Shown here: one piece after another, positions 2,641-59,385 of the stretch | How the letters are laid out: each line of letters opens with the position of its first letter | Position numbering within the stretch: position 1 is the stretch's first letter | Source: Eledone cirrhosa | Taxonomy: Eukaryota | NCBI GenBank assembly: GCA_964016885.1 | Contig: OZ024740.1 | Location: 82,026,001-82,090,000, forward strand | DNA: 64,000 bases | Direction: 5' to 3' | Made by a program: the position numbers and the translations under genes | The notes under the pieces: generated by a model | The model's database searches: none | What the model saw: only the letters and a program-made list of their open reading frames with translations | What the model was told of the DNA's origin: nothing

Positions 2641-4462
2641 ATATTATAATGAAATGACAGGAGGCTGGATTTGTGTAAATCATTGAAAGGTTTATCATAC
2701 TATGATCATTTCAATGACCGGGTTTCGTATGAATCCGGTGATAATATCAGGTATTCGAAATATAATAAGTGAATGTAATAGATAAAATCCATGGGGCTGA
2801 AAATCAAAGACCCGAGGACGACCGCCATCCACCATCTTCCACCTTTGCCGGTCGCCCTCAAGTGACGTGGCTAAAGCTTACAGTGTGCTACTACCGGTCA
2901 AATAAAGGAAAACACAAAGGGATAGGAACACGGCGCATAGGCCTTCCTTGAGTGCTTGGAAAAATAAATTTCCCCTTCTTTCGGTAAATGAAACTACTCG
3001 GAGTGGCTTGAATCGCCCCAGGGGCCCGGCCGCAGCCGGTTTTTTGACCGCCATATAGCACCTTTAAATTACAGATCTAATCATAACTATTAAATGTATC
3101 ACGCCTCCCTCTACTTAAGCAAATCCCCATCCTGGGTAAAGGAATTGTACTGGTTTTGTACAAGAATGGCCTAACGATGCGGGCTGACTTCCTGCTGACG
3201 CACCTGAAGCTTGTTATACGTTCCTAGAGTTCTCAGAAAAATCGATTTCCATATCTTTCGCTAGGTGATATCACTCGGTGTGGATGTGCTGCCCAAGCTT
3301 GTAGTCGCCGCATGCTGTTTGACGGCTAAACAAAGACAATCTTTACTCTATAATAAAATTTAAGTTTCTTCATAAAATACTCTTTCTTTGCTTAAACCTC
3401 GCAACCTTAAAAATGTCAAACTGTTTAACTTTCAATTTTCTAGTTTCTTTAATTTTACAATGTTAATATTAAATATTAATTTTTTAACTTCATCCTATAA
3501 ATATAAACAAAAATGTAACGTTCCAATCTTCTGCTCACACATTATAACATACAGACGCCCACTATATTTACCTCTGATAAGATACGGGTCCCTTTAAAAA
3601 TATTTTTTTCGCGCCATTCCTGGCCTGACTGTAGTCTGACATTAATATCGACCTCTCTTCCTCTTTCTTTCTATCTTTCTTCTTGTAGCCATTAACCCTG
3701 ACTTTTCTTCTTCCTTTTCTTCCTTCTCTTCCCCCTTCTTTCTGTATTTCTCCTTGTGGCATGATATTAACGCTGACTTATCTTCCACCCCGTTTTTGTT
3801 TGCCTATATTTGACCGGTAGTAGTTGTTAAGATACGGGTACCTTAGAATGAATTTGTTTCGCTACATTCCTGGCCTGACTGTAATACCGACCTTTCCTCC
3901 TCTTTATTTATGTCTTTCTTCTTATAGCTGACATTAACACTGACTTCCCTTCTTCTTCCTTGTCTTCCCTCCCCCTTCTTCTCTCTTCTTTCTTTCTTTC
4001 TTTTTTCTTGTGGCATGATACTAACGCTGACTTATGTTCCTATCCCTTTCTGTTTTCCTTTATTTGACCGGTAGTAGCACACTGTAAGCTTTAGCCACGC
4101 CACTTGAGGGCGACCGGCAAAGGTGGAAGATGCTGGATGGCGGTCGTCCTCGGGTCTTTGATTTTCAGCCCCATGGATTTTATCTATTACATTCACTTAT
4201 TATATTTCGAATACCTGATGATATCACCGGATTCATACGGAACCCGGTCATTGAAATGATCATAGTATAATAAACCTTTCAAGGATTTACACAAGTCCAG
4301 TCTCCGTCATTTCATTATAATATTTAACTACATACTAGCACCACTAACTACAAAAACAAAGACGGTTAAACTGCTTTACGTTGAGTACTCTCCATATTAT
4401 TACATTACGATTGACCATACGGAATTGATCAGCTCTAACCAGTGGTGAACCTCAAACCTGAA
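2641..4462 (+). mobile_element. PLE-type fold-back insertion in (TA)n: inverted terminal segment, decayed body, pLTR
   Basis: 2641-2930 is the reverse complement of 4035-4323; an internal direct duplication of about 250 bp lies at 3579-4078; microsatellite on both sides; HHR in the arm. Confidence 0.8.
4211..4268 (+). ncRNA. Type I hammerhead ribozyme
   Basis: atac-CTGATGA-stem II (accgg..ccggt)-GAAA-tgatca-TA-gtat, followed by AATAAA; the mirror copy at about 2697-2755 has a mutated core. Confidence 0.8.
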
Positions 4463-6438
4463 TACACACACACACACACACACACACATATATATATATA
4501 TATATATATATATATATATATATATATATATATATATATATATATATATATATACATATATTTAATCTTCTGAATATTCTCCCCAGATTTTATCTGTAAT
4601 CCCAATTGAATTTACACGTCCAACTACCTTATCTCTTTTATATCATATCAGCTACTTTGTTGGTCACATGTTGCGGATATCGTATGTCCCACCCTTGAAG
4701 AAAGCGTTTATAACGGTTAAAATATTTTAATATTATTCTATAGAATTTATTTGACATTGAAACTAGTAATTTCATTTTACATACGATTTCGTTGCCCTCC
4801 GTATATATGCCACCCTCTCTCTTACACTCATGGACCTTCCCCTTAGAATACACAAATATAAGGAGAATTATGTTTTTAAACAAGGCAACATTAAATTAAA
4901 TCTGTTAATGTTAGTTTTGCTTTCTCAATATTATATTGAAATAATCAACAATTCTATTTCATGATTCCTTTTAGGACGCCGATGCCTTGAATTCACTTTA
5001 GTTTGTGTGAAAGAAAGGGATTTTGTATGCATACGGAGCATAAGAGTTTTCATTCTACTAGCGTACCCATAAACCACGACACAAATAAAGGAGAAAATGG
5101 GTGTTTTTTTAATGAATCTATACGTATACATATGACCTTCGATGTGTATATATTCAGGAAAACATACTAATGTACTAATTCTTTCAATATCCTTATCTTT
5201 GTGTCGTTATTATTCTGCTTCCTCGGTTGTATGCTTACCAGTATAACAACTTAATCCTTGCGTGATCACGTCACACTTCCAACCACTTTGGTAATGCTTT
5301 CAACTTTATTTACTACCGTCCGACCAGCGTTCCCATATTTCTTCTCAGTGGCAGGGATCTGACCAAATTACTACAAAACTACGTATTTTCATCACACGGA
5401 ATCAACATATGATGGCATGTCTTTTTCTGGTTAAGAGGTTTACACCATAACTACGTGGTTACCGTTGAAATTATAGTGAGTGATTAATAATACGAGTGTC
5501 CTCTGCCATAATTCAAACCGTCTGAAACCATACTATTCAGATTGTTTCGGGAATATTCATATGGTTTAACACTAAGGTATATTCCTTTGGAGATTTAAGA
5601 GGTGTCAAATCTTTTACAAGTATTCGGATCTTGTTAGTAAACTTAGGATATTTTTGTCCCTTGAAGGTTCTGAATATATTCAAATATGCTGCGTTTTCTC
5701 ACTTGGTAATATCATAAGTAATAGAAAAAAGAATTCTTTAAATGAGGCAGACAATTTTAGTATCTGATAGTTACACAAGCATATACTATGAATTTTCAAG
5801 GAACGGTGCGGGGAAAGGGAAGGCGGAGCAGATAGAGGAAGCGGTGGACAGACAACATAGCTAAATGGACAGGAAAGAACTTTGCCACAACCCAAACACT
5901 AACCCATAACTCCCAGGATGAAATCAGCGTGTGTGGTGTTCAGCACTGCAATGTCCCAATGACCCCCGAAATGGGTCAAGGAACCATGATTATAATGATG
6001 ATGATAATACTATACATATCACTCGAAGACCAATCTAATCACGGCGTTATTGTGAAATTCGAAGATATGTCCACATGTTTTTTGTTTTGTTTTCGTTTAA
6101 AGATTCTGTTTTCTGCTATAGAGTAAGAGTGACAGATATTTAAAGTATGTAATATTATACTGCGAGTAGTGGGGTTGAACAACTGACATATAATTTTTAC
6201 TCATTACAGTGGAGGATGAATAAAGAGAAAGGTTGATGTAGCAAGTATCAACATGAAGATTAGGAAACAACCAACGCATTTGGCTCACAATATAAACATT
6301 TCTAAATGGAAATATGTATCCTTGGTGATACATTCTATGATGTTCAAATAATTGTCTTAATTATTTTCATGATTACAAATTCGTAAATAGAATTTATTCT
6401 TTCATGTCAAATAATGAGATATTAATTAGAGGAAACAA

Positions 6439-58100: not shown

Positions 58101-59385
58101 ATATATATTTTATACTATATTGTGTGTATATATATATGTATATGTATATATATATATACGTATATATGTGTGTGTGTGTGTATGTGTGTATATTTATACA
58201 TATGTATACTCGTGTTTGTTTGTATGCGTGTGAGTGTATTTATTTGTGTATATATATGTGTGTGTGTGTGTATGTATGTGTATGTGTGTGTGTATCTGTG
58301 TGTGTGTATATATATATATATATATATATATATATATATATATATATATATATGTGTATATATATATATATATATATATATATATACGTATATATGTGTG
58401 TGTGTGTGTATGTGTGTATATGTATATTTGTATGTATATATATGTATATATGTTTGTATATGTATATATATATGTATGTATATATATGTATATATATGTG
58501 TATATATATATATATATATATATATATATGTATATGTGCGTATGTATATGTGTATATGTATTATATATGTATGTATGTATGTATGTGTGTATGTATGTGT
58601 GTGTACATGAATATATATTTATATATTTTTTATATATGTGTGTGTGTTTTTATGTGAGTATATGTGTTTGTGTGTGTGTTTATGGTTGCGCGTAAGTGTG
58701 TGAGTGAGTATGTGTGTTTTTTTGTTTTTTATGTGTGTTTTTTTGTTTTTCTGTTTTTTTGGTTTTTTGTTTTTTTGTTTTTTTGTGAATGTGTCTGTTG
58801 ATTTTGGCATATTGTTGATTAGTTTAAGAGAAGTTCGAAGATAATAGTAAGATATGCACTCAGTATTTTGAATCTGTCTGCAGAATTCTCTAGACCTTTG
58901 TCACTTAGTAGAACCTTAATGACTTTAGCTTTTAAAGAATCTCCCTTTTCTTTAATTCTATCGAGCATGACTGACCCCCCACTGATTTTATAGACATCTG
59001 TTAGCTTAAGAGAAACTTATTGACAAGGAATGGTATGCCATCCGGAACCTGTTTATAGAATTCTGTCTGCCTTTGTTACTCTAAAAACATAAATAAATAT
59101 AAATAAAAATAAAAATTAACTATAGCTTTGTAGAATTAGCTTTTAATGAATTCCCTTTTCTATCAACCAATGACCTGCACCCATCCCACTCCCCACCCTC
59201 TCCTACCACTTGTAGAGACCTATAAATACCATATTTATTTTTTGATACCCAGATTCCTGATGATTTCTAATGAATGAAACAGTTCTAGTCCTGTAGAATC
59301 TCATCTATATTAAAACTGTTATAATCTGCTATGTATTGAGTACCTTACTTACTGTGGTTACCTCCGATTCAACCCGGAATAACGT
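55198..59385 (+). mobile_element. 5'-truncated inverted copy of the same PLE
   Basis: 55229-56212 differs from the matching part of the minus-strand ORF at 2 residues; 3' region mirrors 48205-51312. Confidence 0.95.
59251..59301 (+). ncRNA. Canonical type I HHR of the young PLE
   Basis: agattc-CTGATGA-tttc taat gaat-GAA-acag ttctagtc ctgt-A-gaatct, with a GUA cleavage triplet. Confidence 0.9.

Follow-up and report, generated by a model that had tools for sequence, protein, structure and literature searches.

Tails of head-to-head Penelope-like inserts in Eledone cirrhosa favor coupled priming on both target strands

Introduction

How does a retroelement come to lie in a genome as two inverted arms joined at their 5′ ends? 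The question is raised by a 64,000-nt stretch of the Eledone cirrhosa assembly GCA_964016885.1 (contig OZ024740.1, positions 82,026,001 to 82,090,000 of the forward strand; hereafter the window), which is a real, dense example of the known insertion architecture of Penelope-like elements (PLEs). An earlier note on this stretch proposed that both strands of a cut in self-complementary (TA)n prime reverse transcription independently, and that the two complementary DNAs (cDNAs) are joined centrally. Here we add two counts that discriminate between mechanisms, drawn from one window and one read-mapped family: the share of inserts with exactly one tail, and the share with the tail on the shorter arm. 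They favor two-strand priming over the published self-priming, and the two primings look coupled, not independent.

In PMC3846280, PLE inserts are described with an inverted pseudo-long terminal repeat (pLTR), a tail on one pLTR and junction palindromes, and self-priming on an antisense template is proposed; it is the one explicit printed model that we found for tandem plus inverted PLE inserts. The head-to-head geometry is not new, being called “the most frequently observed” there. In PMC8557442, an adjacent inverted 5′-truncated copy is reported together with (TA)n targeting and a tail on one side; the PLE transposition cycle is termed undefined there. PMC11167929 reports a purified anole PLE protein that nicks both strands of AT-rich DNA and extends them, that starts reverse transcription at two sites bounding the tail, and for which a dimer is predicted. 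A coupled two-strand model was not found stated in the literature searched; the PLE reviews of 2005 and 2006, Pyatkov 2004 and supplements lie outside that search and may hold it.

Results

Two-armed inserts and their orientation

After masking of simple repeats, self-BLAST of the window and alignment of each left arm to its own right arm revealed inverted arms at all 18 fold-back starts listed before. Seventeen of them are two-armed inserts, whereas the one at 19757 is only a 52-bp hairpin (19756-19859), lies 1180-1283 nt away from any TA run, and was rejected as a two-armed insert. All counts and model tests refer to this window, and the read data to one family. Inserts are named by their starts in the earlier note (e.g. 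38410, 48205), with refined coordinates given below. Their arms of 57-1196 bp are 90-99.5% alike, and together they occupy 25,989 of the 64,000 bases (41%). Positions 1-48800 hold 26 fold-back centre bins, compared to 0 in each of 10 shuffles with TA runs kept. The 3′ ends face (TA)n as previously claimed: all 34 outer ends lie at most 25 nt from a run of (TA)≥5, compared to 5% of background positions. Alignment fixed 28 of these ends, and the six candidate tails were extended to the TA run by definition, which makes TA proximity circular there. All outer ends lie inside (TA)n, where a target-site duplication (TSD) is unreadable. The two-armed inserts are as follows.

2645-4463: arms 2645-2930 (minus) and 4035-4321 (plus), the right arm longer; hammerhead-like core at 4215; a 142-nt extension on the right is a candidate tail.
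11127-11330: arms 11203-11263 and 11267-11327; 76-nt left tail, common to 29084; half-hammerhead only.
11377-11847: arms 11377-11555 and 11558-11737; 103-nt right extension, a candidate tail; degenerate hammerhead by eye.
11883-13757: short left arm 11883-12098 (minus) bearing a 44-46-nt tail; long untailed right arm 12099-13757 (plus) with the 3′ half of the reverse transcriptase (RT), a GIY-YIG endonuclease (EN) and the 3′ untranslated region (UTR).
13827-14872: arms 13869-14281 and 14537-14860; hammerhead cores at 14084 (minus) and 14734 (plus); end of a short interspersed element (SINE) inserted in the left arm (13971-14034); candidate tail of about 42 nt on the left.
21071-22932: arms 21148-21757 and 22336-22932, a hammerhead in both; left arm longer and bearing a 77-nt tail; true centre at an inner palindrome (22277-22341).
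29084-29275: family and centre of 11127; 74-nt left tail.
31236-31939: family of 11883; equal arms 31236-31563 and 31567-31897; 3-nt untemplated join; 42-nt right tail.
32845-33222: hammerhead in both arms; candidate tail of about 70-76 nt on the left.
34800-35743: a relative of 21071, with a hammerhead core in each arm; tail of 95 nt on the left.
36195-36822: arms 36283-36430 and 36680-36822; minus-strand hammerhead in the spacer (36523); 88-nt candidate left tail.
36845-38202: retrozyme-like; left arm of 2.4 tandem 467-nt hammerhead units (minus) with a 66-nt tail; right arm 37976-38202 (plus) starting 2 nt past the predicted ribozyme cut; 5-nt microhomology.
38412-39351: Hydra-type family; long untailed left arm, short right arm with an 86-nt tail; 3-nt untemplated join.
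39714-40602: family of 38412; long untailed left arm, short right arm with an 86-nt tail; blunt join.
45227-45918: arms 45391-45579 and 45736-45918; 164-nt left extension, a candidate tail; half-hammerhead only.
47364-48175: 323-nt hammerhead unit in partial tandems; left arm shorter and bearing a tail of 30-33 nt.
48207-59384: 11-kb insert, probably of the Hydra clade; untailed left arm 48207-55199 (minus) with a partial tandem and the whole open reading frame (ORF); shorter right arm 55199-59384 (plus), its tail 66-69 nt long; microhomology of 1 nt; three copies of a TA/CA-rich 3′ UTR of 2.3 kb.

All 13 orientable inserts, oriented by hammerhead, ORF or family identity, have the left arm on minus and the right arm on plus, as the earlier note had stated, and are thus head-to-head; no tail-to-tail palindrome was found among the fold-backs of the window. 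As a strict hammerhead descriptor gave only four motifs, a relaxed one was used. At 11 of 18 sites the predicted sense strand scored higher, and every one of these scores exceeded the best of 10 shuffles; five sites had no match at all (a tie at zero), and the antisense strand scored higher, at low values, at two (11883 and 19757), both of which are oriented by ORFs. The inserts 38412 and 39714 were oriented because their single-armed relative 41844-43433 bears an EN ORF (41911-42452). The four remaining inserts (11125, 29083, 11373 and 45226) have half-hammerheads by eye in the same sense.

Elsewhere, at 60373-61044 (around 60570), an old Hydra-type RT piece (plus) and an EN piece (minus) face each other without shared sequence.

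Tails and the two 3′ ends

At the outer end, one arm outruns the other in all 17 inserts. The extension is confirmed as element sequence in 11 of them, where it matches another copy or the adjoining tandem unit with identities from 23/25 to 68/69; the confirmed tails are 30-95 nt long, and the six further extensions are candidate tails. The 68/69 match is that of the 48205 tail to the ORF-start region, i.e. the sequence after the pLTR. Each family has two fixed 3′ ends, 30-95 nt apart and at the same two places in its copies; between the 21071 and 34800 subfamilies, the untailed end is shifted by 21 nt. Exactly one tailed and one untailed end occur in 11/11 inserts with a confirmed tail, the chance of which would be about 4e-4 if the arms chose independently (p=0.43-0.5). 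The six inserts with candidate tails fit the same pattern. The tail folding does not show a common hairpin, with z below −3 in just two of 17.

The second count concerns the resolvable inserts, which have arms of unequal length and a spacer whose assignment is given by another copy or an ORF. In five of seven (11883, 38410, 39713, 47362 and 48205) the tail is on the shorter arm and absent from the longer one; in the other two (21071 and 36842) it is on the longer arm, and if the candidate tails of 2641 and 36195 are real, these would be two further long-arm cases. A short arm bearing a tail that the longer arm lacks is therefore not a fold-back copy of the longer cDNA, and needed its own RNA-templated start.

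Centres and source of the arms

The claim that the two arms usually stop at different element positions holds for 10 of the 17 inserts, in which they are at least 71 nt apart at the centre; in the other seven (11125, 11373, 21071, 29083, 31234, 32845 and 34800) the inner ends meet within 17 nt. The junction check suggested earlier was run at the five centres with a native reference, giving +GTC, a 1-nt overlap, +TTA, a blunt join and a 5-nt overlap, as end joining would leave. By eye, the 47362 junction has an imperfect overlap of about 3-4 nt.

The arm phylogeny also suggested earlier gave a divided result: partner arms share variants in 48205, 38410 and 39713, whereas 34800 and the pair 11125/29083 contradict this. 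The 48205 arms have six differences over 1196 sites, and 11 of the 14 listed read-table variants are common to both; seven of its shared variants are missing from 85-100% of the family reads. Both arms of 38410 carry a 9-nt deletion, and those of 39713 have three shared informative sites versus one cross-insert site. These patterns lend moderate support to one source for both arms.

In the retrozyme-like insert 36842, the right arm begins (37976-37980) 2 nt past the predicted hammerhead cut, and the left arm reads through two hammerheads, which suggests a cleaved RNA as the template of the right arm. Short hairpins also occur at 32618-32699 and at 1959-1990, the latter with a native GTAC at its centre (cf. 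the copy at 32518).

Single-armed pieces

About 11 PLE-derived pieces are single-armed (15122, 16168, 19811, 23209, 29996, 31104, 32744, 39365, 40657, 41844 and 44787), counted by homology, ORF or hammerhead core, the last being weak. Two-armed inserts thus make up about 17 of 28, so that the earlier note's main integration mode stands for this one window, chosen as rich. The listed single-armed pieces and the hairpin between two of them are as follows.

16168-19756 (minus): putative Neptune-type PLE with RT and Cys linker; left neighbour of the 19757 hairpin.
19756-19859: snap-back hairpin of 52 bp, at the 5′ terminus of an EN fragment of Hydra type.
19811-21038 (plus): Hydra-type PLE 3′ piece with GIY-YIG EN and 3′ UTR.
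41844-43433 (plus): family of 38412/39714, with EN ORF 41911-42452 and a short RT piece on minus (41844-41933).

The hairpin at 19757 joins the Neptune-type RT (minus) to the unrelated Hydra-type EN piece (plus); the junction is head-to-head, not the fold-back of one element. Another fragment of a PLE endonuclease lies at 15122-16036 (plus), with its hammerhead core at 15906; fused to its 5′ end is 14900-15121, a 93% inverted copy of 10772-10998, the DNA left of the TA tract. Here the cDNA possibly switched onto target DNA.

Head-to-head joints in reads from other individuals

A unique stretch of the window matched three runs of one sample, possibly the assembled one, and raw reads from restriction site-associated DNA sequencing (RAD-seq) of other individuals in a different study. 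Four of these six runs were aligned to 51140-54080, which contains none of this window's centres. Loose ends flanked by (TA)n pile up at 53500-53504 and 53569, in 320 and 432 reads of X4 and 383 and 543 of X5, two other individuals, and in 55 and 16 contigs of X1. Among the 15 joints listed out of 44, eight join opposite strands, all at 53555-53632 and none at the 3′ ends, and seven of the eight occur in raw reads. In six of the eight, the shorter side has, to within 1 nt, the length allowed by arms that run toward the 3′ end, the other two being below the limit and uninformative. The placement of these strand-changing joints and their side lengths indicate that head-to-head joints of the 48205 family occur across the genome and in other animals.

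In the same alignments, read depth over the tail and hammerhead (53516-53649) is about 200-fold that of the ORF. Some joints go back 75-77 nt, corresponding to hammerhead-bearing tandem units of about 76 nt, and many copies start at 53632, just upstream of the core. At 51430-51432, next to an SphI site, more than 2000 X4 RAD reads stop matching and continue in mixed AT-rich sequence.

Identity of the elements

As judged from their sequences, the inserts are PLEs with an endonuclease (EN+) of Hydra and Neptune/Nematis type, plus retrozyme-like non-coding passengers, in (TA)n. The 48205 ORF (53454-51313, minus) is a complete PLE ORF split by one in-frame stop, and of its 702-aa protein, residues 3-701 are covered by a homologue-derived profile; the GIY-YIG match (E=0.0086) is weaker than the Pfam cut-off. 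Its translation (53589-51313) has a C-terminal GIY-YIG, RWR for RWK, DKT, a CxCx5C linker, and CxxC and CxH around the E and N of the EN. These are the Hydra-clade motifs of PMC8557442 (section 11) apart from RWR instead of RWK, and they point, together with the (TA)n targets, to a probable Hydra-clade element. By BLAST, the two outer pLTRs of 48205 seemed a closer pair (99.5%) than either did with the inner one (97%), a signal that was rejected, as there are only 1-3 differences over 529 sites outside the A-rich part. Its TA/CA microsatellite-like 3′ UTR of 2.3 kb is copied as part of the element (48830-51130, 54200-55198 and 56400-58700). A 56-nt piece at 54467-54522 is found only in the inner 3′ UTR copy; it resembles a SINE end.

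Insert 11883 matches RVT_1 (E=5e-4) in addition to the EN, and the 11883/31234 family has RT, a Cys linker and a CCHH-type GIY-YIG, being Neptune- or Nematis-like. The 38410/39713 family is the 3′ end of a second Hydra-type element, the endonuclease of which lies at 41911-42452. In 16168-19756, the linker is of a degenerate CX2-5CxxC type, and the match ends at position 645 of 747 of the profile, before the EN; no GIY-YIG was seen after the (AC)n run, whereas homologues have linker and EN.

Inserts 36842 (467 nt × 2.4) and 47362 (323 nt) consist of tandem type I hammerhead units without an ORF; a hammerhead is present in both whole units of 36842 and in each arm of 47362, and Rfam HH9 matches at 37122 and 37589 are under the gathering score. 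With these tandem ORF-less units and predicted type I hammerheads, they appear to be like non-LTR retrozymes (LTR, long terminal repeat). Altogether, the window contains neither a coding sequence nor a coding relative for 12 of the 17 inserts; for the ten besides 36842 and 47362, having no ORF in the window does not alone make them non-coding. Partial tandems (pLTRs) are seen in 48205, 36842 and 47362, and inverted partner arms in all 17. A minus-strand hammerhead unit of about 430 nt at 40657-41207 forms a partial tandem without an inverted partner.

Beside the PLEs, the segments 6441-6632, 7002-7389, 13971-14034, 24993-25176, 43516-43629 and 44218-44574 belong to one SINE-like family of about 180 nt, including two tandem dimers and no fold-back. 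At 61558-62729, a 568-nt unit is present in two to three tandem copies that are 94% alike and end at (TA)n; no hammerhead core was found in it.

Discussion

A proposed mechanism for the head-to-head inserts

On balance, we hold it probable that a dimeric complex primes both strands in one event, with one RT per start site, and that the cDNAs are then joined. Both strands of the cut target would prime reverse transcription within one insertion event. A dimeric protein-RNA complex would occupy both start sites with one RT apiece, the two sites probably lying on a single RNA, and each cDNA would end at its own point before host end joining links the two centrally. Loss of one cDNA would leave a single-armed copy. 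Two-strand priming and central joining, as the earlier note had them, agree with arms that both begin at element 3′ ends, with the short-arm tails and with the junction types. Self-complementary (TA)n, to which that note had tied the priming, is dispensable: because inserts in Adineta show the same head-to-head geometry with ordinary TSDs of 8-10 bp (PMC3846280), (TA)n accounts for the landing site of these clades, not for the geometry.

The published alternative is self-priming (Arkhipova 2013), in which the 3′ end of an antisense transcript, or of the first cDNA, snaps back and primes copying into a hairpin; a staggered EN cut of the open end then leaves one tail, and the hairpin integrates. 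It was proposed from junction palindromes (PMC3846280), with the tail ascribed to EN-mediated resolution (PMC8557442). A copy cannot contain what its template lacks, yet most resolvable inserts carry the tail on the short arm. Moreover, three untemplated bases or blunt joins at the centres give no fold-back primer, and the PAc protein primes on both nicked strands in vitro, with its two start sites being the genomic ends (PMC11167929). We therefore consider self-priming unlikely.

Nevertheless, several points weigh against coupled two-strand priming. Near-perfect palindromes, which self-priming predicts, form seven of the 17 centres, and snap-backs at 5′ ends without a 3′ end (1959-1990, 19756-19859 and 22277-22341) indicate that fold-back self-priming also happens; because of these centres and snap-backs, self-priming keeps some weight. 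The centre shared by 11125 and 29083 falls within what is probably the stem of a ribozyme. A single tail per insert would likewise result if the endonuclease cut an intermediate in a stagger, as proposed in PMC8557442. With regard to the source of the arms, the 34800 right arm has three informative sites in common with the solo copy 39365 and none with its own left arm, the pair 11125/29083 has one cross-insert site, and gene conversion could cause variants shared between arms. Furthermore, the direction of the read joints was deduced from side lengths, the read table giving no explicit one, and the evidence comes from a single window.

That the two strands prime fully independently on two RNAs, as the earlier note had it, with the one-tail pattern due to chance or later trimming, appears quite improbable. 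Unrelated inner stops in 10 of 17 inserts, and the head-to-head meeting of two different clades at 19757, would suit it; the presence of one end of each kind in every insert with a confirmed tail, and the rare source variants shared by the arms, argue for coupling.

It is very improbable that two insertions in one TA tract were fused by later deletion, or that whole palindromes move as units like miniature inverted-repeat transposable elements (MITEs). The TA tracts of the window are crowded with inserts, and 11125 and 29083 share layout and centre, but centres have no residual TA, and partner arms come from one family in 17/17. The ends are asymmetric because of the tail, unlike in MITEs or foldback DNA transposons, and centres differ in three of four family pairs (11883 vs 31234; 38410 vs 39713; 21071 vs 34800); reads of one family contain eight different joints. 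Assembly or library fold-back artefacts are hardly credible, since arms differ by 0.5-10% and are asymmetric at both ends, and equivalent joints recur both in the raw short reads from two other individuals and in a third sample's contigs, even if this read evidence comes from outside the window's centres and the 48205 arms are 99.5% alike.

Implications

The two genomic counts separate the models without biochemistry, and tie the in vitro result of 2024 to genomic structure through coupled two-strand priming. Octopus bimaculoides has unusually many loci forming double-stranded RNA (dsRNA), and much hyper-editing (PMC5625713). Long dsRNA is predicted here: 31236-31939 folds at −610 kcal/mol (z −58) in predicted folding. 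Such inserts are candidate dsRNA sources; they also yield an age per insertion, and confuse repeat annotation, as they resemble MITEs or microRNA (miRNA) hairpins. Rfam miRNA matches over the hairpins were all below the gathering score and were rejected as chance. A farther-reaching version is possible but rather doubtful: a dimeric PLE complex loaded with one RNA, and with one RT at each start site, would prime both cut strands at once, every insertion, coding or retrozyme, would be born a perfect hairpin datable by arm divergence like an LTR pair, and in this mollusc such inserts would be a main source of ADAR-edited long dsRNA.

Comparison with known systems

L1 twin priming likewise uses both target strands as cDNA primers and joins the ends in the middle, but the second primer anneals internally and nothing is duplicated. 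In the inserts described here, by contrast, the 3′ end is where both arms begin. The only piece resembling L1 is 41844-43433, with the RT piece (minus) joined to the EN piece (plus) without duplication as in a twin-priming inversion.

Compared to published EN+ PLE insertion units (PMC3846280; PMC8557442), the inserts are alike in the head-to-head inverted copy, junction palindromes, partial tandems, the tail at one end and hammerheads near the 3′ end. They differ in that confirmed tails reach 95 nt, versus the 30-40 nt reported there, in their density, and in that the tail is often on the shorter arm. Insert 48205 resembles the Hydra clade of PMC8557442 in motifs, hammerhead and (TA)n insertion, and differs in its 2.3-kb microsatellite-like 3′ UTR.

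Similar to PAc/Poseidon of Anolis (PMC11167929), the inserts have two RT start sites bounding the tail and AT-rich targets, in accordance with a protein that cuts and extends both strands. PAc belongs to another clade, and the main text of that paper draws no link from dual-strand extension to inverted copies. Non-LTR retrozymes have been described as non-autonomous PLE derivatives (bioRxiv 10.64898/2026.07.22.740005), which 36842 and 47362 resemble as tandem ORF-less hammerhead units. In the text of that preprint, “inverted” occurs in a reference only and “tail” nowhere, whereas 36842 and 47362 bear the full PLE insertion signature, with both an inverted partner arm and a tail.

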